Virus record (IMG/VR): IMGVR_UViG_3300009093_000042
Location: 1 to 64,000 of that record
DNA: 64,000 bases
Origin: a virus
Lineage: Duplodnaviria > Heunggongvirae > Uroviricota > Caudoviricetes
Direction: 5' to 3' (one strand)
Each line of letters begins with the position of its first letter. Within the stretch, counting starts at the first letter, position 1. Below, in pieces: positions 875 through 20,744 of this stretch. The notes beneath the pieces are model-generated. The model was given only the letters and a program-made list of their open reading frames with translations. It searched no databases and was not told the DNA's origin. Position numbers and translations under genes: made by a program.

Positions 875-892
875 AATGTTTACAATTTTGAG
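875..892 (-). promoter_or_regulatory. conserved TGTTTACA/TGTAAACA promoter-like element abutting ATG of 308..874
   Basis: Minus strand reads CTCAAAATTGTAAACATT directly before the ATG. Confidence 0.5.
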
Positions 893-932
893 ATGCTGTT
901 ATTGGCTTTATAGATTTGATTGTCAACAATTT

Positions 933-1343: not shown

Positions 1344-1392
1344 TTTCCCTTTCCCGTGCGCGGTCGCTTCCCGTCCGGCGACCGCGTTGAAA

Positions 1393-2052: not shown

Positions 2053-2272
2053 GTTTGGTGGTTTTAGGTTTGGTAAAATAGCCGAAGCCCTTGGCGCGAA
2101 GCGTGGCCATGGGTGCGCCTTTTGGTTTCACGCTGGCTGAGCCGCCACGCACGAAAAAGTCATGCAGCGCGGTCAGAAACTTCTGTTGCTCCGGGTCATC
2201 GGTTTTGATTTCGAGCAGGCGGCAGCCGTCACTCATGCAGCCCTTGCGGGGCGCTTTGGCGTAAATTTCCAT
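2006..2272 (-). CDS. hypothetical small basic protein
   Basis: 88-aa ORF filling the gap between flanking genes. Overlaps the downstream gene by 47 nt. Confidence 0.3.
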   Translation of the reverse strand: MEIYAKAPRKGCMSDGCRLLEIKTDDPEQQKFLTALHDFFVRGGSASVKPKGAPMATLRAKGFGYFTKPKTTKHEPNRKTPRSQSRVR

Positions 2273-2274
2273 AA

Positions 2275-2730
2275 TTAGAAAGGGATAGGGACTTTGAAAT
2301 TCGCGAGCGTGAACATCACCAGGGCCAGCGGGATGGTTTCGTAGTGGTCCTTCTGAGGATCGCCGTAGCAGTAGCCGTCTTCGAACTTCCAGAGCTGAAG
2401 CGGGTGCTGGTCATCGACCGTAAGCGACATCTCCATGATCTCAACCACGTAATCGTCATCCTTGTGGTAGGCCGGGATGTCAGCGTCGATTTCGTCGTCC
2501 GGGTGCGGGTGGTCCACGCGGATCATGCCGTGACGCTTCTGGTGCTCTGCGGGCACCTGGAGGGAACAGAATGGCTTCACGGCTGGCCGCCAGTTCTTGT
2601 CGCCCTTGGGAATGCCTTTCGTTTCCTCCTGGCCGGGGAAGTAAAACCAAGCGTAGCCAAACAGGTGAATGGCCACTAACTTGTCGATCTCTTTTAGCTG
2701 CTCGTCCGTGAACTTCTTTATGGCTTGCAT
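2275..2730 (-). CDS. hypothetical protein (151 aa)
   Basis: Uninterrupted minus ORF, acidic and non-repetitive. Confidence 0.5.
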   Translation of the reverse strand: MQAIKKFTDEQLKEIDKLVAIHLFGYAWFYFPGQEETKGIPKGDKNWRPAVKPFCSLQVPAEHQKRHGMIRVDHPHPDDEIDADIPAYHKDDDYVVEIMEMSLTVDDQHPLQLWKFEDGYCYGDPQKDHYETIPLALVMFTLANFKVPIPF

Positions 2731-2924
2731 CTTATTTCAGGCCCAACGTTCAGCCCGGCAAATGCCCACTGTGGCGGATTCTTGACTTCGTGCATCACCG
2801 CACGCGCTTCTGCTTCGCGACGGTCTTCGCACTCGGCCACTCGTCTCCAAACCGTCTCGGTAACATCCGAGGGTTTGGTGACCAGGGTCGCGTACACAGC
2901 CCAGGGCAACGGTTCAGCCTTCAC
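2718..2924 (-). CDS. hypothetical small protein
   Basis: 68-aa ORF in gene-dense minus array with 13-nt overlap to the next gene. Confidence 0.3.
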   Translation of the reverse strand: MKAEPLPWAVYATLVTKPSDVTETVWRRVAECEDRREAEARAVMHEVKNPPQWAFAGLNVGPEIRCKP

Positions 2925-3304
2925 GCTACTTCGAGATCAAATAGTGTAACGGCAAATCTGCTTATGGCGTAATTGATATTCCGGTCGATCACGAGGAGGC
3001 GCTTGGCCACCGGGTGATGCCCGTTTATGTGAACTCTGTTTTGGTCGTCCAACTCCATCGCGAGTTCGTATCCCATCTCGCGAGCTTTTTCCATGCACCG
3101 GAGCCACACCATCTGGGAGGCAATCGGGTTGGCAGTCGGATAAAAAAGTTTTACGTGTTGAAATTTCCAGCCGCTGTCAACGCGGCTGTACCAGTCGTCA
3201 TTCCACAAGGTCCAGCCCATGACCTTTTCAGCAATCACTTTGTCCATTTTTCGATTAGGGCTGTCTTCCACAGGCTTGCTAAAATCTAAGGTCAAAACTG
3301 GCAT
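2921..3304 (-). CDS. hypothetical protein (trimmed; ORF-track start at 3343 is TTG inside the promoter motif)
   Basis: Codon at 3343 is TTG lying within the TTGTTTACAA motif. First ATG is at 3304 (MPVLTLDF...). Confidence 0.45.
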   Translation of the reverse strand: MPVLTLDFSKPVEDSPNRKMDKVIAEKVMGWTLWNDDWYSRVDSGWKFQHVKLFYPTANPIASQMVWLRCMEKAREMGYELAMELDDQNRVHINGHHPVAKRLLVIDRNINYAISRFAVTLFDLEVA

Positions 3305-3330
3305 GTCAGAGATATTTACCTGACGTGACG

Positions 3331-3348
3331 AAATTGTAAACAATTTTT
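3331..3348 (-). promoter_or_regulatory. conserved palindromic promoter-like element
   Basis: AAATTGTAAACAATTTTT. It overlaps the TAA stop of the upstream gene. Confidence 0.5.
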
Positions 3349-3811
3349 ATTTAACTTCGCGATATTCTTTTACCTTAACAAAGGCAAGGACTTCCGAGTC
3401 GTCATTGAAATCGCTTAAGTTGCCGTTGCTACCTGGCAGCTTCTCCCAGATATTACCGTCCTTTTCGAACAGTCCGCCATCAGGAATATCACGGACGGCA
3501 CAAACGCGTCCGGTCGGCACGCATTTCAAGGGCGAACCATCCGGCAGCGTGATCAGACGCATTTCTTTTTTGTTTTTGCGTGCCGCCTGCCTGAGCGTGA
3601 TCGGCACGTAGCAAAACTGATTCGGATCATCGGTGACTGGATCAAACTTCTGCTTCGTGAATCTGCCGTGCCAGGTGCCGGTGTGGCACTCCGAACACAG
3701 GATCATGCCGCTGCTTTTCTTCTTACCGGAGTCAACCAGGCGCGTCCAGTAGTTGCCGTGGAGCGCGGTGTTGTCGATACCGTGGCATTTGTCGCAAACG
3801 AACAGTGGCAT
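3347..3811 (-). CDS. Cys-rich putative zinc-binding protein
   Basis: CDKCHG...CSECHTG...FCY pattern. Ends with TAA overlapping the promoter motif at 3331-3348. Confidence 0.5.
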   Translation of the reverse strand: MPLFVCDKCHGIDNTALHGNYWTRLVDSGKKKSSGMILCSECHTGTWHGRFTKQKFDPVTDDPNQFCYVPITLRQAARKNKKEMRLITLPDGSPLKCVPTGRVCAVRDIPDGGLFEKDGNIWEKLPGSNGNLSDFNDDSEVLAFVKVKEYREVK

Positions 3812-4131
3812 TAGTCAACAATCAGAGTTTTTGAAACAGCGTATTCTCGAAAATCCGGTTTTGGTCGCTTCAGCACCATCTTGCGAAAATTGTCACCGTA
3901 CTCGCCTTCCTCCTCCCATTTCATGGTGCCTTCGGCCAGGCCGACGACGTTCCTGAAAAAGTCGATACCGTGCGTGGTGGACGTGGTCAGTCCGCGTGAA
4001 TACTTCTTCGAGAACCACATCTTCAGGTCCACGAACAGATCGGGGAAGCGCCACGGTGGGGCCAGGTTGAGGATGTGCTCGCACGCTTTTGCGCATTCGA
4101 GCATCGGGTCTGGCGGGGTGGATTCAGTCAT
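3811..4131 (-). CDS. hypothetical protein (trimmed to ATG at 4131)
   Basis: ATG at 4131 forms ATGA overlap with the stop of 4128..4355. GTAAACAT motif lies 4 nt upstream of the ATG. Confidence 0.4.
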   Translation of the reverse strand: MTESTPPDPMLECAKACEHILNLAPPWRFPDLFVDLKMWFSKKYSRGLTTSTTHGIDFFRNVVGLAEGTMKWEEEGEYGDNFRKMVLKRPKPDFREYAVSKTLIVD

Positions 4132-4355
4132 AAGATGTTTACGCTTTGAGCGAAGGTCAGCCTGCCCTTGGAGCGCCCGGTGATCTGGCGTGCGAATGCT
4201 TTTGTTACCAGGCCCTTCGACGTACGATCGAGAGCGATCCATTTCACTTCATTACGCACGTCGGTCATTGTGGGACATTGAAAAGCGCGCACCTGGTTGC
4301 GCTCGCCCGTTACCACAACGGACCAGTGCCCGACCTTATCGCTGTTGTCGATCAT
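4128..4355 (-). CDS. hypothetical small protein
   Basis: 75-aa ORF coupled by ATGA to the downstream gene. Confidence 0.4.
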   Translation of the reverse strand: MIDNSDKVGHWSVVVTGERNQVRAFQCPTMTDVRNEVKWIALDRTSKGLVTKAFARQITGRSKGRLTFAQSVNIL

Positions 4356-4786
4356 GCGCGCTCAAATGCGTGCCAGACGAGCCGACCGCCGAGCTGTTGA
4401 AATGTTCCGATGTAGCGACGATTGGCTTCTTCCGTAGGATTGCCTGTGCCGATGATCTCAATCTCCCGGCGCTGTTTCGGCGCTTTGGGATTAACCATTG
4501 CCCAGATGGCCGGGGTTTCGCCCTGTACTTGAACGGTCAGGATTTTTGCCCCCTCCGGCATCATCACGTTTTGGATGCCTGTTATTTCAAGAGGAAATTT
4601 CCAGATGGTTTTCGCATCGCCTGCGGGCGATTCTTCTTCCTGGTTCCAGAAATCACTGAGCCATTGCATCTCCTTGGAGTACATGTCGGCCCAAGTAGAA
4701 AGACCCGGCTGAGCGTCATCAAGCAGTGATTTGAGCCGGTTTACGTGCTCACGTATGGTATCGAGGTTTGGGGTGGATGAGTTCAT
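4352..4786 (-). CDS. hypothetical protein (144 aa)
   Basis: Minus ORF with 4-nt overlap to the next gene. Confidence 0.5.
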   Translation of the reverse strand: MNSSTPNLDTIREHVNRLKSLLDDAQPGLSTWADMYSKEMQWLSDFWNQEEESPAGDAKTIWKFPLEITGIQNVMMPEGAKILTVQVQGETPAIWAMVNPKAPKQRREIEIIGTGNPTEEANRRYIGTFQQLGGRLVWHAFERA

Positions 4787-4788
4787 AG

Positions 4789-5058
4789 TTAGGTTTCTTC
4801 AGTTTCTTCAGTTTTCATGGAAACGTCGGTTGGCGTTTCTTTTTCTTCGTGCTTGAGATCGCGGGCGTAGATCGCGTAATCGACACCTTGTTGCAGACCG
4901 ACGTGGTTGATGAACCCAGTCAGCACGGCGTCCACGATTTCCTGGGAAGGCGCTTCTTTCAGGTCGTGCATGTGGGAATTGCGCTGGTAGTGGTCTGCGT
5001 CCTTGCGGAATTGACGGGCGTTCTTCGTCAGCATCTCAAGCAGTTCTATCTTTGTCAT
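4789..5058 (-). CDS. hypothetical small acidic protein
   Basis: 89-aa ORF. Confidence 0.4.
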   Translation of the reverse strand: MTKIELLEMLTKNARQFRKDADHYQRNSHMHDLKEAPSQEIVDAVLTGFINHVGLQQGVDYAIYARDLKHEEKETPTDVSMKTEETEET

Positions 5059-5302
5059 GGTGTTCCTGGGCTTTCTGTTTTAGTTCCTTCACTGTTTTGG
5101 CGTGGGCCTTGAACCGGCCCTTCCAGAAAAGATCATATCCGTGCTCCGGCTTATGGATGCCGCGAAACGGTCGGCAATCCATGATCACGTACAAGCGGGC
5201 GAACCGCTTGCCGTAATACTGGCCGTCCTCCACCCAGTGGCGGTGCTGGTTCCGGCTGTAGCGCCAGTCCAGGGGTTTACTGCTTGGCGCGGTCTTCGAC
5301 AT
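5036..5302 (-). CDS. hypothetical basic protein (trimmed from ORF 5036..5569)
   Basis: Only the C-terminal 88 aa from ATG at 5302 look protein-like. The upstream part is low-complexity S/K/R and overlaps the ACP gene in another frame. Confidence 0.3.
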
Positions 5303-5531
5303 ACTTTTGGAGCTTCCCGAACGTCTGGAGCTTTTCCGCGTCCTCGTCCGAGATTTCGAAACCAAATTCTTCCTCAATGGCCATGAGGACTTCAACGGCG
5401 TCGAGGGAGTCCGCTCCGAGATCGTCAATGAAGTTGGTTTCGGGTTTGAGCTGCGATTCATCGACGCTAAGCTGCTCGACGATGACTTCTTTAAGGCGCT
5501 GTTCGACAGTTTTATTAGTAGAATTTGACAT
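5277..5531 (-). CDS. acpP: acyl carrier protein
   Basis: [22 protein letters not shown] is the canonical ACP phosphopantetheine-attachment motif (DSL). 84 aa and acidic. Promoter motif lies 9 nt upstream. Confidence 0.8.
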
Positions 5532-5535
5532 AGGT

Positions 5536-5553
5536 GAAAATGTTTACGTTTTG
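5536..5553 (-). promoter_or_regulatory. promoter-like element upstream of ACP gene
   Basis: Minus strand reads TTGACC-N17-CGTAAACATTTTCACCT-ATG. Confidence 0.5.
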
Positions 5554-5573
5554 TCTTTCGGTTGGTCAAGCGC

Positions 5574-5975
5574 TCATTGACGGGGTGGCCTCATTTTCTT
5601 TTCGGTCCACGCGGCGTGCATCCCGTCAACGTCCTTTTTCATTCTTTCCACGGTCTCATTGAGCGAGTCCATGGCGGCCTTCTGTGCTTTAGCGCGGTCG
5701 CCTTCAAGGAAATAAACGTTCCGTCCGACTTCATCTGGGCGATCGTACATGCGGACTCGGCGCACCTGCATGATCTCGTCCGCTTTCACGCGTTCGTGCA
5801 GGCCGACAGAAAATCCCTGCTGACGCAGCTCGTGCGTGACCATCTGCGGAAGGTAGTTTTTACCTGTGAACTTGACCGCGTACTTGCGGATGCTGGCTGC
5901 GATGCCAGTCGGATCGACCGCGACGACAAACTCGTACAGGGTGATGATTTCAGTTTTTGGCGCGGCGGTTTTCAT
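5574..5975 (-). CDS. hypothetical protein (133 aa)
   Basis: Minus ORF. Confidence 0.5.
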   Translation of the reverse strand: MKTAAPKTEIITLYEFVVAVDPTGIAASIRKYAVKFTGKNYLPQMVTHELRQQGFSVGLHERVKADEIMQVRRVRMYDRPDEVGRNVYFLEGDRAKAQKAAMDSLNETVERMKKDVDGMHAAWTEKKMRPPRQ

Positions 5976-6240
5976 CTTTCCATTTCAGGTATTTTTCCAA
6001 GTTTGCGATCCCGTCCAGCATGGCTTCACGGATCATCGTGTCATCACATCGACTGGCATCCCATTTCCATTTGGTTATGACGTGAGCCACATCTTCCAGG
6101 GGCTGAGTCTTGATCCAAGCCACGGCGCGCTTCACGTTGTGCATCGCCCACCAGAGGCGGACGCGCAGCACCGTGTAAGTCCAGAACCACACCAGGTGGT
6201 CACTCAACGACTTCCGCTTGTTCGATTTGCTTTTTATCAT
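5950..6240 (-). CDS. hypothetical basic protein
   Basis: 96-aa ORF overlapping both neighbours by 26 and 41 nt. Confidence 0.35.
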   Translation of the reverse strand: MIKSKSNKRKSLSDHLVWFWTYTVLRVRLWWAMHNVKRAVAWIKTQPLEDVAHVITKWKWDASRCDDTMIREAMLDGIANLEKYLKWKDENRRAKN

Positions 6241-6982
6241 TTTTCGGTACGGGTGGCAGCAGGGCGACTCCAGCCAGATTAGTAAGCGTCTGCATGATTC
6301 TCTCTGGCGTCAGGAACTCCGCCAGGCGCTTGCGCAGCTCGTCGATGCGCTTGGAAAATTCATCCAGGGCAGCACGATTCATCTCATTATCTTCGATGCA
6401 CGCGATGATTTTGCCGCCGCTATCCGTAAACGCGCCCGGCCAGACCTTGATTTTCATCTCGTGGCCGGACCATTCCTTCATGAGGAATTTTCCGTCCCAG
6501 GTGGTGCCGCGATAAACGCCCTTGTAGCTGAAGATGAGGCCGGTGCCGTCTCCGCCGCCCCAGGGGCGCTGCTGATCAATTTCTACCAGGAAGAAGTGTT
6601 CCCACTTCACTTCGAATTTTTTATCGAGCGCGCCCCACATTGCCTGGCGCAGGACTTCGATGTCAGTCCCCTCCATCTTGATGTCCAGTTCCTGGCAGAC
6701 CAGCTCAAAGCTCACGTTCCTGGTCGGATGCGGTGGTTCTTCAGACTGTTCAGTCTGTTTTTCCATGCGCAGCTCGATCTTGACGATTTTATTTTTGATG
6801 CGTTCTTTCCGGCGCTCATGCCGGTCGATGTGTTTGCGCTGGTCGCGTCCGCGCTCATCTTTGTCCTCGTCCTCGGGTGAGACGTAGTCCAGGCGCTCGA
6901 TCTCAACATCCTTGACTTTGTAAACCCAGGTGTCGATGAGCTTGTACGGGTTGTGACGAGACGATCCTAGTTCGCGTGGCAT
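6200..6982 (-). CDS. hypothetical protein (260 aa) with charged coiled-coil-like segment
   Basis: Long ORF containing a KDERGRDQRKHIDRHERRKERIK segment. Confidence 0.5.
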   Translation of the reverse strand: MPRELGSSRHNPYKLIDTWVYKVKDVEIERLDYVSPEDEDKDERGRDQRKHIDRHERRKERIKNKIVKIELRMEKQTEQSEEPPHPTRNVSFELVCQELDIKMEGTDIEVLRQAMWGALDKKFEVKWEHFFLVEIDQQRPWGGGDGTGLIFSYKGVYRGTTWDGKFLMKEWSGHEMKIKVWPGAFTDSGGKIIACIEDNEMNRAALDEFSKRIDELRKRLAEFLTPERIMQTLTNLAGVALLPPVPKNDKKQIEQAEVVE

Positions 6983-6985
6983 AAA

Positions 6986-7309
6986 TTAGCTTTTAGGGGT
7001 GAAGAACTGAGTCTGGGAAAAGTGGCAATGGCCGATGCGCCCTGGCCTGCCGACCGGACAGCCGAGCGTCCGGGCATGGTGTTCGCCCTTTACCTTTTTG
7101 CAGTGTTTGCACTTCACTGGCTTCGGGGCCAGGACACGAGGCTGAACGAGCGCGGTAGTGACTTCCTCAGCATCGCCGTAGTCGCCATTCTCTACAAATC
7201 TGACGAAGCAGTTGGTGCGTCCCATGCGGTAACTGACGAAAACACCGTTGCCACGGTTGGCGTGGGTGACGAGGTCGCCCGTCACGAATTGATGCTTCTT
7301 TTTTGCCAT
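6986..7309 (-). CDS. hypothetical protein (trimmed; ORF-track start 7315 is TTG)
   Basis: ATG at 7309 (MAKKKHQF...). Upstream intergenic carries the promoter motif and a terminator for the preceding gene. Confidence 0.45.
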   Translation of the reverse strand: MAKKKHQFVTGDLVTHANRGNGVFVSYRMGRTNCFVRFVENGDYGDAEEVTTALVQPRVLAPKPVKCKHCKKVKGEHHARTLGCPVGRPGRIGHCHFSQTQFFTPKS

Positions 7310-7335
7310 GCACAATACACTTACACTATTGACGT

Positions 7336-7354
7336 AAAATTGTAAACATTTTTT
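7336..7354 (-). promoter_or_regulatory. conserved palindromic promoter-like element
   Basis: AAAATTGTAAACATTTTTT, between the terminator of 7412..8431 and gene 6986..7309. Confidence 0.5.
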
Positions 7355-7360
7355 ATTACG

Positions 7361-7392
7361 AAAAAAGCGGCCTGGAATTGCTCCCAGGCCGC
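7361..7392 (-). terminator. rho-independent terminator after 7412..8431
   Basis: Minus strand GCGGCCTGG-GAGCAATT-CCAGGCCGC followed by TTTTTTCG. Confidence 0.7.
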
Positions 7393-7411
7393 TTGGTTTA
7401 ATCGAGTGATT

Positions 7412-8431
7412 TTAAGGAGCCGGATGGCCCGTCATCAGATCATTGGTGGTCATGCCGAACGCTTTCATCTGGTCTGCATCCATTTCCACCCACGGCTGGA
7501 CGGTGAAGGCTTTCTTGTTTACGAGCTGGCCAGCAATGTGCGGGCTAATGTCGTTGGTAGGTTGGAGGTAATTGCGGAAGTACAGCGGATACGGTTGATT
7601 GGTCGGGTAGGTCTTGAAGAAGACCGAGAAGCGCGCTCGCGTACCGTACAGCGGCGGATTGAGCGACGGATCATTCGTCCAGTTCACCGTATTTGTATTG
7701 CAGACGACATAACCGTAGTCGGTGAACAATTCCAAATGATTGGTCGGCTCCAACAGGTCTGTCGCGAGATGGTCGGTCGTGTTGGTGTTTGGTGTCAGGC
7801 CCCAGGTTGGCAGCGGCCAGGCCCAGTTGACGTAACCGTGGTACGTGCCGGGACAACCGCCAGAAGTGCCACCAATGAAACCGTTCGTGGCCGCGTGTAC
7901 CCACGCAACAAATCCCGGCTGCTGGACTGCCCGCCAGAATAAGTTTACGCCGGGGATGTTGGGGCCACCGACCATCTGCACGGTGTACTCGCTGTCGTTA
8001 GTCGTGCCGATGAAGATGCCGCCGAGATCATTCCAGTTGGTTGAACCGAGATCGGTTGTCCACTGAACGGTGTAGGCTCTCGTGGGGTCTGTGTTGGTTA
8101 CCGCGATGTTGTAGTAGAGATTTCCGTACGGGGCAGCCGTAGCAGCATCAAAGGGACTCGCGCCCGCGCTCACCAGTAGGTTGTTGCTGTCCACCATCCA
8201 GCCGTAGTTGGTGTACACCTGAACGAAGCCCGGTGTCAGAACGCTGGCCACGCGCACCAGCACGGCATCCAGCGGATACTCCTGAATGACTGGCGGTGGA
8301 TTGGTGTAAGGCGGACAATTCGTGCATGGTGGACAGTCCGGGCACGGTACCGGCTGAGCAGATGCGTTGATAGAAGTTACGGCGATCAGGGTAGCGACCG
8401 CCCCGGCAAATAGGTTTCGTAATTTAGTCAT
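7412..8431 (-). CDS. secreted Cys/Pro-rich protein with N-terminal signal peptide
   Basis: N-terminus MTKLRNLFAGAVATLIAVTSINASA, then PCPDCPPCTNCPPYTNPPP. Followed by a rho-independent terminator on the minus strand. Confidence 0.55.
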   Translation of the reverse strand: MTKLRNLFAGAVATLIAVTSINASAQPVPCPDCPPCTNCPPYTNPPPVIQEYPLDAVLVRVASVLTPGFVQVYTNYGWMVDSNNLLVSAGASPFDAATAAPYGNLYYNIAVTNTDPTRAYTVQWTTDLGSTNWNDLGGIFIGTTNDSEYTVQMVGGPNIPGVNLFWRAVQQPGFVAWVHAATNGFIGGTSGGCPGTYHGYVNWAWPLPTWGLTPNTNTTDHLATDLLEPTNHLELFTDYGYVVCNTNTVNWTNDPSLNPPLYGTRARFSVFFKTYPTNQPYPLYFRNYLQPTNDISPHIAGQLVNKKAFTVQPWVEMDADQMKAFGMTTNDLMTGHPAP

Positions 8432-8467
8432 CCACCAAAGAACGAAACCCGCAGAAAGGGAATTTGT

Positions 8468-8692
8468 TTACGCGGCGAAGGACTGTTCTTCGTGCTTCGG
8501 CTCTTTTGTCTTTTCGGATTTCGGGGGTTGACCAAGCGCGGAAAGCGGAATCGCGACCATTCCCAGGAGCTTCATCTGATGCTCGCTCATGGGCTTGCCG
8601 CAGGCTCCGCATTTTTCGTTTTTGGCACCGGTTCCAATGGTGAGCGTTTTGATTTTATCAATGAACGCCTTGTTAGCTGATTTCTTGCTCAT
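8468..8692 (-). CDS. hypothetical small protein with CxxC
   Basis: 74-aa ORF containing CGACGK. Confidence 0.4.
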   Translation of the reverse strand: MSKKSANKAFIDKIKTLTIGTGAKNEKCGACGKPMSEHQMKLLGMVAIPLSALGQPPKSEKTKEPKHEEQSFAA

Positions 8693-8736
8693 ACGGTTGG
8701 ACTTAACTATGACTTCAGTTTTTCCAAAAGCAAGTC

Positions 8737-8976
8737 TTAGCCTGCTTGTTTGAGGATTTTCTCTAGCGCGAGAAACCGGTTTAAGAGAGCGTCGCGGATC
8801 ACCGTGGCTTCGCGCCCGAGAGCTTCCTGGCCCAAGGAATGAGAGAGCTGTGCCAGTTCATGCAAAGACTTCGCTGCTGTTTCCATGGCATGACCCAGGA
8901 CAACAGCTTTAGCGGCAGGCGTTAGGTGCCTGCCGCTAAGTACGATCGGTCTTTCTGGCTTCTTCCTGGAGGCCAT
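8737..8976 (-). CDS. hypothetical small protein
   Basis: 79-aa ORF. Confidence 0.35.
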   Translation of the reverse strand: MASRKKPERPIVLSGRHLTPAAKAVVLGHAMETAAKSLHELAQLSHSLGQEALGREATVIRDALLNRFLALEKILKQAG

Positions 8977-8981
8977 CCGAT

Positions 8982-10187
8982 TTATTTGAGGACGGGTGCC
9001 GGAGTGGTTGCCGGAGTAACCGCAGGCGTGGTCTTGACGCCGACCATCATCTGTTCGACGGAGTCCATGAAGCTGGACGTGAGCAGGTTCACTTTCATGT
9101 CCTGCGGCAGCCAGCCCTTCACGCCCGAGAACGCGGGTGCGACCTGCTTGGCGATCTCGATGCGGGCGAACACGTCGGCACCGGCCACGGCGTAGGATTC
9201 GAGCTTCAGCTTGTTGGCTTGGGCTTCGGCTTCACCACGGGCGAGAATACCCTTGGATTCGGCGATGTCGGCATCACGTTTGCCTTCGGCTTCCAGCACG
9301 CGTTTCTGCTGCTCGGCTTTGGCGGCGATGATTGCCTTTTCGTTGTCGGCTTCCGCTTTCAAGATGGTGACCTGCTTGTCCCGGTCAGCCCCCACGATCT
9401 GGGTGTTGGCGTCGGCCTGGGCTTTGGCTTTGGCCACCAGCGCTTCTGCTTCAGCGGCCTTCTGCTCCTCCACGGCGCGCAACTGGCGCTGCACCGCGAC
9501 CTGTTTGCCTTTGATTTCCTCGATGTATTTCGGGTCCAGGGCAATGTGCTCGACCACGAAATTTTCCACGATGATGCCGCGCTGAGGCAGCTCCGCGCTG
9601 GCCTGGTCCTGGCCTTTGCCTTGCAGCGCGTTCTGGATGTTCTGCTGGAGCGTCACGAGGCCGGAGCCGGAGTAGGCGTCAAGAGCTTTCATCTTGGTGG
9701 CTTCGTCTTTGACGACGCGCATCACGACCGGGCGAATCAGCTTTTCCTCAATGTCCGTGCGGACGGTTTTGTGGATGCTGACCAGGTTGGTCGGATTCAG
9801 CCGCCAGCGGATGTTCATCGAGATCGTCATGTCTTGGCCCTCCTGGGACTGCACCAGGTAGGCGTCAGTGGCGCGGCCTTCGCCCTTTTCTTCAGGCGTG
9901 GTGTTGTTATTCATCACGAAGATGCGCGAGGAGGCGTCGTACGTGATGATCTTCTGGCTCCAGGCAGGGATCAGAACTTGCAGGCCGGGCTGATAGACTT
10001 TGTCTTCGACGCCGTCGTGCCAGGTTTCCTTGATGCCGAGTTCATTGCCTTTGATCATCTTGTAGTTCACGCACTGCAAAAGCAGGAACATTACGATGAT
10101 GACGGCGATAGCGCCGCCGATTAGTTTTCGTGGATTCATATTGGATTCTTCTGTTTTTGGTTTGGTGGTCCTTCGTCGTGCTGTCAT
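8982..10187 (-). CDS. SPFH/band-7 (stomatin/prohibitin/HflK-like) membrane protein
   Basis: N-terminal TM anchor, then a band-7-like core (IRPVVMRVVKDEATK...GIIVENFVVEHIALDP) and an Ala/Glu/Lys-rich coiled-coil tail. ATGA coupling to the upstream small membrane gene. Confidence 0.65.
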   Translation of the reverse strand: MTARRRTTKPKTEESNMNPRKLIGGAIAVIIVMFLLLQCVNYKMIKGNELGIKETWHDGVEDKVYQPGLQVLIPAWSQKIITYDASSRIFVMNNNTTPEEKGEGRATDAYLVQSQEGQDMTISMNIRWRLNPTNLVSIHKTVRTDIEEKLIRPVVMRVVKDEATKMKALDAYSGSGLVTLQQNIQNALQGKGQDQASAELPQRGIIVENFVVEHIALDPKYIEEIKGKQVAVQRQLRAVEEQKAAEAEALVAKAKAQADANTQIVGADRDKQVTILKAEADNEKAIIAAKAEQQKRVLEAEGKRDADIAESKGILARGEAEAQANKLKLESYAVAGADVFARIEIAKQVAPAFSGVKGWLPQDMKVNLLTSSFMDSVEQMMVGVKTTPAVTPATTPAPVLK

Positions 10188-10408
10188 AGCCGTTTCCAGA
10201 GAACGGAAAGCGTGGCGTAAATGAGGTAGCCGATGAAAATAAAGGTCACGAAGGGAAGCGCCACCCGCACTTCAGCTTCTCTTTCGATCACCATTACGAG
10301 AAACAACGCCACCCAGATCACGCCAATGATCGCCAGGATTTTAATGTGGCGTTTGAATTTTGGATCGGTTTCCTTGGGAGCGCCGTTTTTAGAGGGTTCT
10401 TTGGCCAT
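10184..10408 (-). CDS. small two-TM membrane protein, putative SPFH partner (NfeD-like role)
   Basis: 74 aa with two hydrophobic helices. Translationally coupled (ATGA) to the SPFH gene. Promoter motif upstream. Confidence 0.5.
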   Translation of the reverse strand: MAKEPSKNGAPKETDPKFKRHIKILAIIGVIWVALFLVMVIEREAEVRVALPFVTFIFIGYLIYATLSVLWKRL

Positions 10409-10429
10409 AATGGTGCAGTGTCAGTTTGG

Positions 10430-10470
10430 TTAATGTAAACAAAAGGACTTTAGCGCGGACAGCGCTGTCG
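10430..10470 (-). promoter_or_regulatory. promoter-like element plus small hairpin upstream of the SPFH operon
   Basis: AATGTAAACAAAAGG, then an AGCGCggacaGCGCT hairpin. Confidence 0.4.
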
Positions 10471-10495
10471 TCAGTTACAATCTGAGAACGATTTT

Positions 10496-10852
10496 CTACC
10501 GGCCCGGAATGTTCGGTCTCTGCTCCGTCAGGTAGCGGGTCATCGCAGGCCGATTCTTCGCGTTGAGAAAGCACATGGCGACCACGGTAATGACGAAAAC
10601 GATTGCCATCACCAGGAAGCCAGTTTCGAGGCGAGTCATCTTCTGCTGAAGTACATCGGTTCGAGCACGCTCGTCGTTCAGGCTGGCGCGCAGCGCACCG
10701 ATGGAACTCGCCAGGCTGTTGATTTGCAGCGTGCTGGAATTGGTCGTGTAGTCGGTGTTGGTGCTATTGGGCACAACCGGGGGCGTGACGATCTGGGCTT
10801 TCAGGTGGAAGGCCGCGAACAGCAGGAGCAGTGTAATGATAGTGGTTTTCAT
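10496..10852 (-). CDS. membrane protein with signal peptide and C-terminal TM helix
   Basis: N-terminus MKTTIITLLLLFAAFHLKAQ and a C-terminal FLVMAIVFVITVVAMCF stretch. Confidence 0.5.
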   Translation of the reverse strand: MKTTIITLLLLFAAFHLKAQIVTPPVVPNSTNTDYTTNSSTLQINSLASSIGALRASLNDERARTDVLQQKMTRLETGFLVMAIVFVITVVAMCFLNAKNRPAMTRYLTEQRPNIPGR

Positions 10853-10908
10853 GTGAGATCATGTTTGGGTTTAATGTTACCGCTCGGACTGTGGTAGCAG
10901 GCCAGCCG

Positions 10909-10926
10909 GAAAATGTAAACAATTTA
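10909..10926 (-). promoter_or_regulatory. conserved palindromic promoter-like element
   Basis: AAAATGTAAACAATTTAC in the intergenic region between 10948..11244 and 10496..10852. Confidence 0.45.
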
Positions 10927-10947
10927 CTGCTTCCCAGTCGAGAAAGC

Positions 10948-11244
10948 TCATATAAATTTCAGCTCGTGCGCGTAGGCCCCGCCGCGATCAACCTTCAATG
11001 GAAACTGCGGCTTCTCAATCAGGGCGTAGTGATTCGCGTGACAGCAAGGTTCGAACGTGGTCGGGCCGCCCTCTGGGGGAGACACGCGCCCCACTCGCTC
11101 GCCATTCCAGGTGTGGACGATGATGTCGAGGGAGACTCCGTGCTCATCGGACCAGACATCTTTGATAATGCCGAGGAGCGGACGCCGAGTGTCCTTTTCT
11201 GCGACCCACTTGCCTTTTTCAAATTTTACAGCACCAGCTTCCAT
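10948..11244 (-). CDS. hypothetical protein
   Basis: 98-aa ORF. Confidence 0.4.
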   Translation of the reverse strand: MEAGAVKFEKGKWVAEKDTRRPLLGIIKDVWSDEHGVSLDIIVHTWNGERVGRVSPPEGGPTTFEPCCHANHYALIEKPQFPLKVDRGGAYAHELKFI

Positions 11245-11471
11245 TTGGCCTTTTCGTGTTTGACCGGCACCAGGTTGTCGAGAATCGCCTGGGTGATCGG
11301 CACGTTCTCCCCGCGATCCTTCGGCTTTTTGGTGCGGTCGGATAGTTCCAGGGAGTGATTTTCACCGTTGATAAAATGTACGATCGTGTAAAGGAATTCC
11401 TCGCCGTCGATGACAACGAGAACCATGTCCCCCTGGAGCTGGCGCAGTGTGTTTTTGTCCGTGAGTTTCAT
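11226..11471 (-). CDS. hypothetical small protein (trimmed to ATG at 11471)
   Basis: TAATG overlap with the upstream gene stop. Confidence 0.35.
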   Translation of the reverse strand: MKLTDKNTLRQLQGDMVLVVIDGEEFLYTIVHFINGENHSLELSDRTKKPKDRGENVPITQAILDNLVPVKHEKAKWKLVL

Positions 11472-11570: not shown

Positions 11571-11933
11571 CTAAGCGCTAGGTCCTTCGCCTGCATCATC
11601 GACAGCTCCATCACGTCCGGTGACAGCGTGTGGTAGAACAGACTGAACAGCATGGCCGACATCACCGTTACGTTTTCTCTTGAGCAGTTCAGCTCGGTCG
11701 GGATTTCCGGGCGAGCAACACCCCGCTCCGAAGGCTGGAGCTGCCCACCACTCGGGGACGGGACGAGCGAGGATGTCGTTGTAGATTCCGCATTTGTTTT
11801 CATGAGTCAGATATTTGCAGGCTCGATTGGTTGGCGACGTGACTTCGCCGAACGGGCACGGAGCCTGTCGGCAGCAATAACCGGAGTTGATGCACATCCG
11901 AGCGCCAGGATGGAGAGGGAGAGGTTCATTCAT
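11571..11933 (-). CDS. Cys-rich small protein (7 Cys), possible metal-binding
   Basis: ATGA coupling with 11930..12307 supports this frame over the overlapping ORF 11471..11803. Confidence 0.4.
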   Translation of the reverse strand: MNEPLPLHPGARMCINSGYCCRQAPCPFGEVTSPTNRACKYLTHENKCGIYNDILARPVPEWWAAPAFGAGCCSPGNPDRAELLKRKRNGDVGHAVQSVLPHAVTGRDGAVDDAGEGPSA

Positions 11934-12307
11934 CCTACCAGAACCGCCCAGGCGGTGTGCAATCGTTCTTTCAGCCTTTTGACTGTCAGTTCGAGCCGTT
12001 CCAAATTATCAGACACGCGAGAAATTTCTTCCACGGCCTGGGCTTCGGTCATCGTGGACTGTTTTCTACCTGCAAGCGGGGTTGCCTTCTGAACGGCCAG
12101 GGCGTCCTTGCGGATAATCTCCCGGCACTTGCTGCACTCCACGTAGCTGTAATTCAGTCCGCTGCAACAGAATTGATATTCCGCCTTCGGATGGAACTTG
12201 GCTCCGCAAATCGGCTTTTGATCGCAGACCGCGTGAACCTTAGCCGTGGGGTTGTTCTGCCCCGGCATTCCCCACCAGCCCGTTGATGTGACGCGCAGCT
12301 TGCTCAT
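11930..12307 (-). CDS. Cys-rich zinc-finger-like protein
   Basis: CDQKPICG...CCSGLNYSYVECSKC pattern. Confidence 0.45.
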   Translation of the reverse strand: MSKLRVTSTGWWGMPGQNNPTAKVHAVCDQKPICGAKFHPKAEYQFCCSGLNYSYVECSKCREIIRKDALAVQKATPLAGRKQSTMTEAQAVEEISRVSDNLERLELTVKRLKERLHTAWAVLVG

Positions 12308-12660
12308 TAAAATGCTCGTTTCACTTTCAGTTTATCCTCGCCATCCTGGACGAAGAAGGCCACGTCAGCCGGGATGTCCTCACCGTCCCAGGGCAGGTCG
12401 TATTCGGGTTTGAGTGAGAGCTTGCACTCCGTCCACATGCCCTGTTCGACGATCTGCTTGGCGATCTTCTCAGCCTCGGCCACGGCGTCTTCGCGCTTCT
12501 CGAATCCCGTGGTGTGGTGGCCTTTCGATTTATGGCGCACCGGCTTGCTGTCCGATTCCGGGCCTGGCAGCGGCGACTCGTAATAAATGACTGGATGCCA
12601 GCGTTTCAGCTTCGCGTTGAAGATCATCGCGACAACAGGATTGACAAGAAGTGCGTTCAT
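12307..12660 (-). CDS. hypothetical protein (117 aa)
   Basis: Minus ORF. Confidence 0.5.
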   Translation of the reverse strand: MNALLVNPVVAMIFNAKLKRWHPVIYYESPLPGPESDSKPVRHKSKGHHTTGFEKREDAVAEAEKIAKQIVEQGMWTECKLSLKPEYDLPWDGEDIPADVAFFVQDGEDKLKVKRAF

Positions 12661-12703
12661 TGTAATGTGGATGGGTTCCTTGTAATGGTGGTTAGTTAGG
12701 TTC

Positions 12704-12734
12704 GGCGGCCCTGAGTGGGGCCGCCATTTTTATT
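12704..12734. terminator. GC hairpin plus T-run oriented on the plus strand inside a minus-strand gene array
   Basis: GGCGGCCC-tgagtg-GGGCCGCC followed by ATTTTTATT. May act bidirectionally or on antisense transcripts. Confidence 0.4.
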
Positions 12735-12960
12735 GCTCTCGCATCAAAGTTTCTACGCGTTCCATGAATTTGGCTTCGTTGGCGGCAGCTTCCATGTGAT
12801 CACGCCGGGTGAAAAAATCCATGCCGAAAATCTGGGTCATCGCTGATTTATCCGAACCCTCTCCTTCCAGGGATTCACGTTTGGCTTTCCAGTAGGCGTA
12901 GTCCTCGCGGGCCTTCCTGAGCTGGCGGGCTTTGAGCCATTTGACGAATCTTTCGATCAT
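12730..12960 (-). CDS. hypothetical small protein
   Basis: ATG at 12960 lies 8 nt downstream of a TTGACA-N16-TACATT promoter. Confidence 0.45.
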   Translation of the reverse strand: MIERFVKWLKARQLRKAREDYAYWKAKRESLEGEGSDKSAMTQIFGMDFFTRRDHMEAAANEAKFMERVETLMREQ

Positions 12961-12995
12961 GTGAAAAATGTAAACAATTTATTGTTGGTGTCAAT
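12961..12995 (-). promoter_or_regulatory. sigma70-like promoter with -35 TTGACA
   Basis: Minus strand TTGACA-N16-TACATT-TTTCAC-ATG. The core is AAATTGTTTACATTTTTCAC. Confidence 0.55.
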
Positions 12996-13000
12996 GCCTA

Positions 13001-13786
13001 TCAATCACGTTCAGCTCTTTCGTGATCATCCATCGCCCGATCCACCACGTAGCCCATCATCTCGTGCTCTTTGTCCATGTCCGCCTGGATGGTGTTGCGC
13101 AGGTGCTCGCGAAACTCCAGCGGGTTCATCGGGAGTTTGAGCTGCATCACCACGCTGATCGGTAGCAGCCGGGTGATCTCCCGGTGATACGACATCAGAT
13201 TGCTGTATTTTCGGTCGAGCCACTTGTCATAATGACGGATCGGCCAGAGTGCTTGCTCAGCTTCACGCCGCGATTTGAAAAAGTCTGCCAGCCAGAAAAG
13301 GATGCCATCTGAACCTTGCTCCATGTCCCAGTAGTAGAGAATTCCCCACGCGTGCGACCGTGGATTGTACGCCGGTTCGACGAACTCACAGCTTCCCCGG
13401 CTGCCATAATCCGGCTCCTGGCGCGCATACTCCTGGCAGGCGAGGCAGGTCTGGTGATAGCTGCGAGAGCCGAAATAGGCATCCATTTTCCTGATGCCGC
13501 AGCACATGCAGATGGCATCCAGTTCCAGGGGCTTTTTGGCCGCGTGAAAGAGGGCCAGGCGCAGGCACTGCTGATCCACCCAGTGCTCGTGCTCACGAAT
13601 GTCAGCTTCCACTAGCGGCTCGTAAGCCTTCAGCTTTTCCAAGGCACTCGCCTTCGTAATGACGCCCGAAGTCACGTCGCTGCGGATTTTATCCCAGTCG
13701 GTGGCGATGGGTTCGCGGTCAAAAAAGATGTCGGCCCTGATCTTATTCTCATCCAGCAGTTGAATATCAGTAGTCATCTTCGACAC
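13001..13786 (-). CDS. hypothetical protein (261 aa), Cys-containing
   Basis: Long ORF. Confidence 0.55.
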   Translation of the reverse strand: MSKMTTDIQLLDENKIRADIFFDREPIATDWDKIRSDVTSGVITKASALEKLKAYEPLVEADIREHEHWVDQQCLRLALFHAAKKPLELDAICMCCGIRKMDAYFGSRSYHQTCLACQEYARQEPDYGSRGSCEFVEPAYNPRSHAWGILYYWDMEQGSDGILFWLADFFKSRREAEQALWPIRHYDKWLDRKYSNLMSYHREITRLLPISVVMQLKLPMNPLEFREHLRNTIQADMDKEHEMMGYVVDRAMDDHERAERD

Positions 13787-15638
13787 CTTTCCATTCGACG
13801 AACGTGAAATTTTTCTTCTCCATGAAAGCCTTCAGCACGGCTTTATAGTTGACCATGAGCGGGACCGCCCACTGGTACTTCGACTTCCAATCCCGGTCGT
13901 CCAGAATCTCCTCCGACAGCGACGGCGGGAGCGGCATTCGCATGAAGTCTGAGTTTTTCAACACGAGCTTGATCGGCTCCTTTCGGCGCTGGCGGCTTCC
14001 CCAATCTGCTCCTGCGGCGCGGCGCTTCATCCAGGGGTAATAATTCACGACCGGCTTGCCGTCCTCGATGCTGAGCACTTCGAAGATGATGGGCTTTGAA
14101 TCCTTGTAGGTCGTACCGTTGCTGAAGGACGTAGGACCGGCGACCCATTCGTCCACGTAGGCCACGATCCAGTCTCCCCGGTGCGCTTTGCCATCCATGT
14201 AAGGTTCGATCTTCTTCGAAACGCCGTGCCACGGCAGCGCCTGGCGGTAGTCGTAGATGAGGTTGAAATACTTATCCACGTTCTCCCAGTTGAACAGATC
14301 GGTGCCCCTGGGAATGTTCAGCAGCTCGGTGTTATCGACGATGCCCTGGAGCAGCACAGCGAAAATCATCTGCTTCTTATTCACTTTGGTCAGATAATCT
14401 TGCACGGCCTGCCTGAGCTGTTTGTCCAGCAATTCCGGGTAGGAGGAACTGTCGAGCCACTTTTCAATAGTGGCGAAGCGCTCATGCACGATCTGGCGCG
14501 TGAAGTAAGGCTCCTCCTCTTTCAGTGGGCCATGCTTCAGTTCACCCATCACGTCGTCCTCGGCTTTGTCGCCGATGGTCTTCTCCCGTTTTTCCTTGAT
14601 GGCAAAGGAGCTTTCCCAGACGTGATTCTGGACCACGCGCACGGTACGATCGAACTGTTCCCGATCCGGGAACACCGCGTTTTGGAAGGTAAATTCCACG
14701 TCCACGTGGAATACGTTCTCGCCGTCGCGCACCCAGATCATGTTCTGCATGTTCAACATGTTGTTGTACAGATTCACGAAGGCGTCGCGCCCGTAGTCCT
14801 TGTCCTCTTTGCGAATGCGCGTCGCCAGGATGCAGCGTTCGAAAGGCAGGAATTTCCAAATCCGGCCTGACTTCACGAGCCACTTCTCCAGGGCCTCCAT
14901 GTTTTTGAAATCGAAGTCCTTGAAGTTGGCCAGGAGCGCGATCTCCTCGGACAGGTAAACCCTGTTTTGAAAGACTGCGTACTTGCCGGTGCCTTTGTTG
15001 CCCGAACAAATCTGTGTGCGATGACGCGTGCCGTGAAGGTAAGCGTCCAGGATGCTGAGCTTCTGCTTCATGTCCCGGACTTTTGCGCTGAGGTCCCCGC
15101 TCAGGCGCGACATCTCCCACTTCCGGCGCATCAGGCCCATCTGTTCGGCCTGGATTTCCATCTGCATGTCATGCCTGCGCGCCTGGAAATCCACCAGGCT
15201 CGCGCCCATCGGGCTGAGCACCACGTCGGTCGTCTCGTTCGTATTGGCCGGGGCTGCGATCTGCTTGTGCTCGGGATGAAGGTACTTGTTGATGTCAGTG
15301 ACTTTGATCTCCAGGTGCAGCCCAAAGTCCCGACCGTTTCCATTGTGCAGGCCGCCCTCCGCGTAGTGGCGATTCAGGAGTTTGCGTGTGCGCGCAACGA
15401 CTTCTGGCTCGTCGCTCCAGACCTGGATGACTTCGTAAGCTGAGACACCAGGGAGACTGACGGTGTCCAGGAAGAACTTTCTGCCGACCGGCTCAGCCGG
15501 AAAGGCCATCGCACCGAAAATGATCTTGAGGGCGTCCTCAACATTCTGGGCGGTAGCGTGCCAGTCGCCGTTGCCGTCGCGCTCTTTGTGGGAATTTTCG
15601 TACGGATTGACTCCGATGACGTACAGAAAAGCCTTCAT
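13767..15638 (-). CDS. large hypothetical protein (623 aa)
   Basis: Long uninterrupted ORF. No recognisable catalytic motif by eye. Confidence 0.6.
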   Translation of the reverse strand: MKAFLYVIGVNPYENSHKERDGNGDWHATAQNVEDALKIIFGAMAFPAEPVGRKFFLDTVSLPGVSAYEVIQVWSDEPEVVARTRKLLNRHYAEGGLHNGNGRDFGLHLEIKVTDINKYLHPEHKQIAAPANTNETTDVVLSPMGASLVDFQARRHDMQMEIQAEQMGLMRRKWEMSRLSGDLSAKVRDMKQKLSILDAYLHGTRHRTQICSGNKGTGKYAVFQNRVYLSEEIALLANFKDFDFKNMEALEKWLVKSGRIWKFLPFERCILATRIRKEDKDYGRDAFVNLYNNMLNMQNMIWVRDGENVFHVDVEFTFQNAVFPDREQFDRTVRVVQNHVWESSFAIKEKREKTIGDKAEDDVMGELKHGPLKEEEPYFTRQIVHERFATIEKWLDSSSYPELLDKQLRQAVQDYLTKVNKKQMIFAVLLQGIVDNTELLNIPRGTDLFNWENVDKYFNLIYDYRQALPWHGVSKKIEPYMDGKAHRGDWIVAYVDEWVAGPTSFSNGTTYKDSKPIIFEVLSIEDGKPVVNYYPWMKRRAAGADWGSRQRRKEPIKLVLKNSDFMRMPLPPSLSEEILDDRDWKSKYQWAVPLMVNYKAVLKAFMEKKNFTFVEWKGVEDDY

Positions 15639-16066
15639 TCCTTTTCTCCCTTGATCACCGAGTCATTGAATTCGTTCGTCGTCAGCGCACCTTTGGCAAG
15701 CTGCACCAGGAGCGACTTGCCGCGCTCAATGCCTGCTTCGTGCGACAGTTGGATCGCCTCCTGGATGGCCTTAAAGAGATCGTTGAGCGCCTGGCGTTGT
15801 TCCGGCGTGGCAATGCGGATGGCCGCGTCCAAGCCGCGTGGGTAAAAGGTCCCGTAATCCGGGACGATGGGACTCACGTCACGTTCAGCGTTGGCTGAAA
15901 GCGTGCGCTTATCCACCTGGGGGAACATCAGCTCGATGATGCGGTAGTAGGCCGCCGTCGCTTTCGGGTAAAGCGTGCCGTCGCCAGAGATAAACCTGGG
16001 ACGGAAGTGCGCCTGGGCAACCCAGAAGGAGTTTTCAGGAGCTTTTGGTTTGCGACGAGTGCCCAT
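15635..16066 (-). CDS. hypothetical protein (143 aa)
   Basis: ATGA coupling with the downstream gene. Promoter motif upstream. Confidence 0.5.
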   Translation of the reverse strand: MGTRRKPKAPENSFWVAQAHFRPRFISGDGTLYPKATAAYYRIIELMFPQVDKRTLSANAERDVSPIVPDYGTFYPRGLDAAIRIATPEQRQALNDLFKAIQEAIQLSHEAGIERGKSLLVQLAKGALTTNEFNDSVIKGEKE

Positions 16067-16070
16067 AATC

Positions 16071-16087
16071 GAAAATGTTTACAAATT
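16071..16087 (-). promoter_or_regulatory. conserved palindromic promoter-like element
   Basis: GAAAATGTTTACAAATT, 4 nt upstream of the ATG of 15635..16066. Confidence 0.45.
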
Positions 16088-16100
16088 CTGTCAGACTCAA

Positions 16101-16616
16101 TCAATGAAAATATCCGATATTAGAAATTCTCCTGCCGCCTTTCGGGGTGCGCCCGAAACGACTGAGGAATTCGAACTTGATGCTGTCTGACTCTGCCCTG
16201 TCCATCTCTGGCGTGGATCGGCTGCCGAGTGCTTCGAACACGGCGCACTGCGCCTGCATGTCTCGCACTTCGTCCCGGCCATCCACCTGAAATTTATCAG
16301 AAGGTTTCTGCGCGTAGCACTTGGGATCAGAGCAACCGGAGCTGAAGAAGTATTCGAAAGCCACGAGGAACGATGTCGCGCTGAGATCAGTCAGGTTCTC
16401 GACAAATTCCAGGAAGCAGGCTGCGTGCTCCGGGCTGTAATCCTTTTTGATGCCGTCATGGATCATCTCCAGGTGGGTTGGACCGAGGTCGCCGCGCTTG
16501 GGTCCCCGCCCGGCGTAATAGCCAGAGCGCGCCAGCAACCGGCCAGAGCACCAGGCGTCAATGGCTTCGTAAAAGCTGGCCGGTGGATTCGTGGGTTTGG
16601 GTAGTTCTTTTTTCAT
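16101..16616 (-). CDS. hypothetical protein (171 aa)
   Basis: Minus ORF. Confidence 0.5.
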   Translation of the reverse strand: MKKELPKPTNPPASFYEAIDAWCSGRLLARSGYYAGRGPKRGDLGPTHLEMIHDGIKKDYSPEHAACFLEFVENLTDLSATSFLVAFEYFFSSGCSDPKCYAQKPSDKFQVDGRDEVRDMQAQCAVFEALGSRSTPEMDRAESDSIKFEFLSRFGRTPKGGRRISNIGYFH

Positions 16617-16837
16617 TATGGGTATTGGGTGAGGGAGTCCCAGGTCGGCAGGTTATACTGCGCGTCCGCGCTGAGACGTTTGTTTTCTTCTTTCCGCCAC
16701 GCGATTTCATGGTAGTAGCACGCGTGACAAATAATCAGATTGCCGTGGTGCGGATTCTTGCCGAGGGGCAGAACTCGCACTTCGCCGGTCGCGCTTTGGC
16801 AATGAGACCCGTCGCAGTTGGGATTCAGGTTTGCCAT
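16616..16837 (-). CDS. Cys/His-rich zinc-finger-like small protein (trimmed)
   Basis: CDGSHCQ...CHACYYHE pattern. TGAtATG junction with the upstream GHKL gene. Confidence 0.4.
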   Translation of the reverse strand: MANLNPNCDGSHCQSATGEVRVLPLGKNPHHGNLIICHACYYHEIAWRKEENKRLSADAQYNLPTWDSLTQYP

Positions 16838-16838
16838 A

Positions 16839-18349: not shown

Positions 18350-18360
18350 TATTTTACCCT

Positions 18361-20675: not shown

Positions 20676-20744
20676 GAGAAATTTAATACCTCGTTGTAAG
20701 TGGCCTAACGACCGTAGTTAATGCGTGGTAATAGTGGATCGGGT

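Follow-up and report, generated by a model that had tools for sequence, protein, structure and literature searches.

A phage SPFH gene and the gene of its predicted membrane-hairpin partner are conserved together in large and huge phages and in Opitutaceae

SPFH proteins form cages across every domain of life, and the contents and purpose of these cages are still debated. Among the closest described arrangements are SPFH-NfeD operons such as QmcA-YbbJ, FloA-NfeD and PH1511-PH1510, in which the gene of a small integral membrane protein lies beside the SPFH gene in the same orientation. A passage of PMC13086221 that cites Tan et al. 2024 describes QmcA-YbbJ as a 1:1 cage of 26 heterodimers. The dome of QmcA faces the cytoplasm, whereas HflK/C protrudes into the periplasm according to the literature. 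In phages, SPFH genes were listed for the T4-like phages 44RR, Aeh1, and RB43 in 2006 (PMC1524935), and were also noted in the Erwinia jumbo phage RisingSun (PMC6034870) and in Vi01-like phages (PMC10892097). Here we analysed an SPFH gene and the gene of a 74-residue membrane protein directly 5' of it, both located in positions 1 to 64,000 of the IMG/VR record IMGVR_UViG_3300009093_000042 (this whole stretch of 64,000 nucleotides is called the window below). As the partner in this pair is a 74-residue hairpin protein instead of NfeD or a protease, and at least 384 homologues of the SPFH protein (50–94% identity) were found across hundreds of phage contigs and in one bacterial family, the pair is a compact system of two proteins in which to study how SPFH rings incorporate small membrane subunits.

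The 401-residue product of the gene at 8982–10187 matched the Band_7 profile PF01145 over the whole length of the profile (residues 44–249, 70.9 bits compared to a gathering cut-off of 23.6, E = 1.8e-19) and phrog_200 with E = 1.8e-34; weak sequence matches to solved chains of QmcA and prohibitin in the PDB were also obtained. The original prediction, made from the sequence alone, had placed the gene in the SPFH family, an assignment to be dropped if profile searches failed to support it, and both profiles did support it. The protein consists of a basic N-terminal tail, a single transmembrane (TM) segment at residues 19–39, the SPFH domain at 41–217 and one helix of 113 residues (219–331). Its C-terminus, a conserved GxKGWLPxDMKVNLLT motif followed by a Pro/Thr-rich tail, is conserved in sequence though poorly resolved in the structural model, which was calculated with AlphaFold2 from an alignment of 60 homologues (predicted local distance difference test score 75.6). 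Foldseek searches with the whole model retrieved prohibitin, HflK/C, erlin, stomatin, QmcA, and flotillin at E-values from 4e-17 to 7e-09 (ranks 1–35). These targets are protomers of cage-forming SPFH complexes, and the alignments were full-length. The product is thus an SPFH protein that, as modelled, has the full architecture of the cage-forming scaffolds HflK/C, prohibitin and QmcA. The likeness to HflK and HflC includes the N-terminal TM segment, the SPFH domain, the long coiled-coil helix and, at the C-terminus, a conserved closure motif (Foldseek E-values from 1e-15 to 1e-10), yet identity is only about 20%, and HflK/HflC are a heteromeric gene pair whereas the window holds one SPFH gene and a 74-residue hairpin. 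The tests for HflK/HflC equivalogs failed, with 16.8 bits compared to a cut-off of 134.4 for TIGR01932 and 11.7 compared to 427 bits for NF008259, and we rejected the protein as an orthologue of HflC or HflK on these scores. A second SPFH paralogue was absent beside the gene, as the neighbouring genes had no Band_7 match.

When the locus was first annotated, a phage that remodels membrane microdomains or hijacks quality control of the FtsH/HflKC type was regarded as unusual. A phage-encoded SPFH gene as such is not unusual, given the strong match to phrog_200, whose members are likewise phage-encoded band-7 proteins with an N-terminal TM segment, and the reports cited above; such genes were recognised in phages two decades ago, and the pair by itself does not reveal an unusual phage strategy. 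The single match among cultured phages, found with tblastn, was a short Ackermannviridae protein of 266 residues with 26% identity over 55% of the query. In this phage (L057, Acinetobacter phage SH-Ab 15599, region 512–3286) the short Band_7 gene is located two genes downstream of rIIB, and no TM segments were found in the products of the genes upstream of it. The hairpin partner is therefore specific to the present subfamily, and an SPFH subfamily with such a partner appears to be undescribed so far.

The 74-residue protein contains hydrophobic segments at residues 18–45 and 45–72 and is predicted to form a TM hairpin with a basic N-terminal tail, a conserved Trp in the first helix, a short charged loop and a basic C-terminal end. 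In an alignment of 26 upstream hairpins, the second helix starts with a conserved LP and contains a conserved YL. Of 17 viral or metagenomic loci that were inspected, all except L008 encode a small two-TM protein directly 5' of the SPFH gene (16 of 17). A hidden Markov model (HMM) of the core of the hairpin, for which part of the loci scored later had served as input, gave a match in this position in 46 of the 53 related loci. The two genes typically overlap by 4 nt, as in L011, L014, L015, and L017, or are separated by less than 50 nt. Pairwise identities of the hairpins and of the SPFH proteins were correlated (r = 0.91 overall and 0.72 for viral loci only; Mantel p ≤ 0.001); the two genes are thus inherited together as a unit. 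The hairpin evolves faster (mean identity among viral pairs 19%, compared to 47% for the SPFH protein). Judged by these sequence comparisons, the hairpin is a dedicated, conserved and co-inherited partner of the SPFH protein. The proposal, made from the window alone, that the SPFH gene is tightly coupled to the gene of a small two-TM protein was correct, and the pairing proved to be conserved far beyond what that one sequence could reveal.

Some relatives of the hairpin are longer. In a divergent subclade (contigs of 77–334 kb) the partner has 156–177 residues and carries an N-terminal HTH_17/excisionase-like domain (helix-turn-helix, HTH; 25.1 bits, just below the Pfam cut-off of 27) as well as a C-terminal helical tail (L011 3417–3950, L015 3528–3998, L016 3426–3935, and L017 3492–3962). 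Such a long hairpin would be a membrane-anchored protein with a DNA-binding-type domain beside an SPFH cage. Cys-rich tails (e.g., CGCSCS, CDEKCDC, or CGDGCGC) end the hairpin homologues of L004, L005, L006, and L009, which suggests a small cytoplasmic metal-binding module.

The original prediction had further described the 74-residue protein as an NfeD-like partner. The arrangement indeed resembles that of nfeD-SPFH operons, with an integral membrane protein gene adjoining the SPFH gene in the same orientation, but the NfeD identity did not hold. The hairpin had no match to PF01957 (NfeD) at E ≤ 0.1 and no NCBIfam match, and no other family at E ≤ 0.1 came near a gathering score. As the TM segments fill residues 18–72 of 74, there is no space for an OB-fold. 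When 1.84 billion representative proteins were searched exhaustively with a profile, the only matches were ten proteins of 71–101 residues, and the extensions of the longer relatives were HTH-like or Cys-rich, never an OB-fold. The hairpin was therefore rejected as an NfeD protein, and the locus differs from SPFH-NfeD operons in having a partner with neither the OB-fold that defines NfeD nor any protease domain, and without sequence relation to NfeD.

Whether the two genes overlap in the window depends on the start codon of the SPFH gene. In the closest homologues (P0001, P0002, and P0004), gene callers place the start at the residue equivalent to Met17, i.e., at position 10139, which would leave a gap of 47 nt to the hairpin gene and no ATGA overlap. 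The relative L001 retains the upstream ATG and the ATGA overlap, and its only differences from the window are in-frame indels (-3 and +6 nt), so that the long form starting at ATG 10187 is plausible; many members of the family also bear polar N-terminal extensions. Hence, of the proposed ATGA coupling, the tight linkage stands under either start codon, whereas the overlap itself holds only if translation starts at ATG 10187.

The window belongs to a divergent phage: it encodes a large terminase subunit (phrog_2666), a helicase and a protein with an RNA-ligase domain, nearly all of its genes lie on a single strand, no tRNA genes were found in it, and its DNA had no match among 50,697 phage records. 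The hairpin-SPFH pair also occurred on huge-phage contigs of about 240–511 kb, the longest of the IMG/VR contigs reaching 511 kb. Two of these contigs (L058, 401 kb, and L059, 357 kb) encode ThyA, DHFR, and DNA ligase around the pair, and a gene of 74–86 codons is located just 5' of the SPFH gene. A contig of 243 kb (L004), deposited as a metagenome-assembled genome of Azonexus sp., encodes PolA, NAD-ligase, and Tad5, and carries 30 tRNA genes within 10 kb (11817–21190) directly 3' of the SPFH gene; its appearance is that of a huge phage placed in a bacterial bin. The pair is conserved in uncultivated huge phages, where it is placed among replication genes. A further pair, at 45% GC, was observed at 1–9089 of a 737-kb contig binned as Thiotrichaceae (L035). 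Besides the pair, these 9 kb hold only one open reading frame (ORF) of at least 120 residues, and the locus may belong to a bacterial chromosome, a megaphage or a degraded region.

Outside phages, about 30 genomes of Opitutaceae (Verrucomicrobiota) carried an unannotated chromosomal pair, including contigs of 1.8 and 3.3 Mb. In a scan of one genome per bacterial species the subfamily (47–50% identity to the SPFH protein of the window) was found almost only in Opitutaceae, although other lineages may have been missed because the scan was pre-filtered by two peptide patterns. The Opitutaceae loci share with the window the two-gene architecture, with a homologous hairpin again encoded directly 5' of the SPFH gene. 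They differ in their cellular setting with conserved flanking genes: the neighbours include a SecA-like gene, PqiA and creatininase, and a gene for an esterase-like protein of 664 residues is syntenic upstream in 15 loci. In a midpoint-rooted neighbour-joining tree, calculated without outgroup or support values, the SPFH sequences of Opitutaceae formed one tight clade (86% mean identity) amid viral and metagenomic sequences of far greater diversity. This pattern is consistent with a single transfer between phages and Opitutaceae, in either direction. It documents gene flow between huge phages and this family, and may hint at host range.

By analogy with the described cages, we favour, with moderate confidence, a reading in which the hairpin-SPFH operon is a functional unit that builds a self-contained cage on the inner membrane. 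The SPFH protein would assemble into a ring or dome at the inner membrane of the host, and the hairpin would be an obligatory integral-membrane subunit whose helices pack with, or inside, the ring of SPFH anchor helices. What is described of QmcA-YbbJ in the passage cited above makes it the best available model for building a membrane partner into an SPFH ring; modelled on it, both proteins would form a hetero-oligomeric ring or dome, and the hairpin would take the membrane-embedded role that NfeD has for QmcA, minus the OB-fold domain. Both termini of the hairpin are predicted to be cytoplasmic, and this N-in/C-in topology is supported by the HTH-like and Cys-rich modules of its relatives, as such modules are typically cytoplasmic. 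The SPFH protein may adopt an N-in/C-out topology, which would place its dome in the periplasm as in HflK/C; the net charge is +1.5 in the N-terminal and -0.4 in the C-terminal flank of the TM segment, and polar N-terminal extensions of up to about 47 residues precede the TM segment in relatives. The pair moves and evolves as one unit common to a broad range of large and huge phages and the Opitutaceae chromosome. As to the benefit for the phage, we can only speculate that the cage fences off or stabilises patches of the inner membrane and thereby keeps the membrane intact and energised throughout a long infection.

Several points weigh against this interpretation. The positive-inside signal of the SPFH protein is modest, as 24 of 60 sequences favoured N-in, 24 were tied and 12 gave the opposite orientation, and it therefore leaves room for a QmcA-like dome in the cytoplasm. 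The structural model is that of a monomer, and its C-terminal 70 residues are at low confidence. The HMM count of conserved pairs is partly circular in view of how the HMM was built, and 5 of the 53 loci, one of them cut by a contig end, had no detectable hairpin. Finally, nothing in this analysis points to a specific phage phenotype, and a tested function was not found for any phage SPFH protein in the literature searched.

A more far-reaching version of the cage reading, which we put forward tentatively and consider rather doubtful as a whole, would make the pair the representative of a so far unrecognised, NfeD-independent class of two-component SPFH cages. This class would have diversified among large and huge phages, with a single capture by an ancestor of the Opitutaceae. 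Its periplasm-facing domes would partition the host inner membrane and, in some lineages, would be tethered through the HTH domain to DNA or a cytoplasmic factor.

Functions other than membrane stabilisation were also considered. The cage might mimic HflK/C, enclosing or sequestering the host FtsH and thereby shielding phage proteins or redirecting the quality control of membrane proteins. The fold and the presumed periplasmic orientation match HflK/C, which is known to enclose FtsH (PDB 7vhq and 7wi3 are among the Foldseek matches), and the hflC model TIGR01932 matched weakly at residues 29–291. Its score, however, was far below the cut-off, there is a single SPFH gene instead of an hflK-hflC pair, and the conserved partner is the hairpin and not a protease. 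As the pair is also kept as a chromosomal locus of Opitutaceae, where trapping the host's own FtsH would make no obvious sense, we consider this explanation improbable.

A role in superinfection exclusion or counter-defence appears somewhat less probable again. The unit would then block the entry of DNA from other phages, or buffer the membrane against pore-forming effectors of abortive infection, in agreement with an inner-membrane module located in a region of small accessory genes and with the distant Ackermannviridae SPFH gene near rIIB. Yet no PADLOC match was obtained, and the pair is vertically conserved in Opitutaceae and not sporadic as defence genes are. The stable chromosomal copies speak equally against a function in lysis timing, with the hairpin as a pore former similar to a class II holin or pinholin that is held inactive by the SPFH cage until late in infection. 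Stomatin-type SPFH proteins regulate channels, and hydropathy and charge predict a small N-in/C-in hairpin of two TM helices like that of class II holins. On the other hand, no lysozyme, amidase or spanin family matched any of ten ORFs scanned between 6200 and 11516, leaving the unit without a detected endolysin or spanin family in or next to it, and the hairpin, which ends in KRL, has almost no charged C-terminal tail. Moreover, the pair is kept in conserved synteny amid metabolic genes of bacterial chromosomes, and in huge phages sits amid genes of nucleotide metabolism and replication, so that we give lysis timing little credence. Lysis control and exclusion of other phages, both suggested in the original prediction, are thus less likely than membrane stabilisation. 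Finally, a true NfeD-SPFH operon with the 74-residue protein as a degenerate short NfeD would agree with the order and orientation of the genes and the tight coupling of a membrane gene directly 5', but is highly unlikely given the profile searches, the lack of space for an OB-fold and the kinds of extension described above.

The segment 7412–10852 contains six co-oriented ORFs on the minus strand, encoding, in the order of transcription, 118, 74, 401, 79, 74, and 339 residues (Table 1). All ORFs that had been listed for this segment in the first annotation were present at the given positions, and the membrane features claimed for their products each agreed with a simple hydropathy analysis. 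The gene of the 339-residue protein was described there as upstream, but in the direction of transcription it lies downstream of the SPFH gene. The 9-mer TTGTTTACA occurred ten times in the window compared to 0.27 copies expected, an excess of about 37-fold. Its copies are mostly intergenic, a few tens of bases 5' of start codons, and include 3335–3343, 10434–10442, 10914–10922, 12969–12977, 18309–18317, and 25139–25147; several have TTGAC(A) about 12 nt further upstream. The motif is probably a promoter element of the phage or its host, and the copy at 10434–10442 probably marks where transcription of the hairpin-SPFH unit begins. This unit appears to extend from the hairpin gene through the SPFH gene and three unrelated small or exported genes to a strong predicted terminator at 7394–7365.

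Table 1. Features in and around the segment 7412–10852, given in positions of the window
Feature	Coordinates	Strand	Basis
Promoter-like motif TTGTTTACA before the gene of the 118-residue protein	10914..10922	-	motif enrichment
Bitopic membrane protein, 118 residues	10496..10852	-	hydropathy
Promoter-like motif TTGTTTACA, 26 nt 5' of the hairpin ATG	10434..10442	-	motif enrichment
Two-TM hairpin protein, 74 residues	10184..10408	-	hydropathy, alignment, HMM
SPFH/band-7 protein, 401 residues (385 if the start is 10139)	8982..10187	-	PF01145, phrog_200, AlphaFold2/Foldseek
Soluble protein, 79 residues	8737..8976	-	hydropathy; homologue in L001
Soluble protein, 74 residues, with CGACGKP motif	8468..8692	-	hydropathy; homologue in L001
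Exported protein, 339 residues	7412..8431	-	signal-like N-terminus, PCPDCPPCTNCPPYTN motif
Intrinsic terminator, 13-bp stem (8 G-C pairs) followed by a T-run	7365..7394	-	3' of the gene of the 339-residue protein

The 118-residue protein consists of a signal-like N-terminus, a predicted helical periplasmic segment of about 50 residues, a C-terminal TM segment (72–100) and a short basic tail, and had no family match in Pfam, PHROGs, NCBIfam or PADLOC. The 79-residue protein has no TM segment; neither this protein nor the second protein of 74 residues (8468..8692) matched a family in Pfam or PHROGs. Only the collinear closest relative, L001, yielded homologues of these three proteins. The 339-residue protein starts with a signal-like N-terminus followed by PVPCPDCPPCTNCPPYTNPPP, and its signal peptide is likely cleaved after ASA. 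It had 20 homologues, all hypothetical, and in three other phage contigs the homologous gene lies away from any SPFH gene. The first annotation had combined the genes for the 118-residue, hairpin, SPFH, and 339-residue proteins into a membrane-targeted cluster. This grouping was not confirmed as a functional unit, because the linkage of the additional genes to the pair was seen only in the closest relative. The genes for the 118-, 79-, second 74-, and 339-residue proteins are co-transcribed passengers and not parts of the SPFH system, those for the 118- and 339-residue proteins being lineage-specific.

The 339-residue protein had also been described as a secreted Cys/Pro-rich protein with repeats. 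The signal-like N-terminus and the Cys/Pro-rich stretch are present, whereas instead of repeats there is one four-Cys motif of 20 residues. Following the signal peptide, PCPDCPPCTNCPPYTN hardly varies even between homologues with an overall identity of only 30–40%, and the mature N-terminus QPVPCPDCPPCTNCPPYTN (residues 26–44 of the product) is nearly invariant across the 20 homologues, in which identity over the rest of the sequence drops to 30%. This segment resembles a four-Cys hinge and may serve for disulfide-linked oligomers or for metal binding in the periplasm. The rest of the protein is a predicted beta-sandwich with generic structural neighbours only. One of the phage-like contigs carrying a homologue (L055) has a further gene, at 9651–11330, for a Ro60/TROVE protein that contains a vWA domain.

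Elsewhere in the window, three further minus-strand genes were observed. An acyl carrier protein is encoded at 5277–5531 (PF00550 PP-binding, E = 9.2e-16, with the DSL motif present) and is also kept in the related contigs L001 and L056. At 52010–54598 an 862-residue protein with a 2'-5' RNA ligase domain is encoded. The product of 58572–59906, a protein of 444 residues, combines a heptosyltransferase GT9 domain with a DnaJ-type CXXCXGXG motif, and the GT9 domain hints at a Gram-negative host whose lipopolysaccharide is modified.

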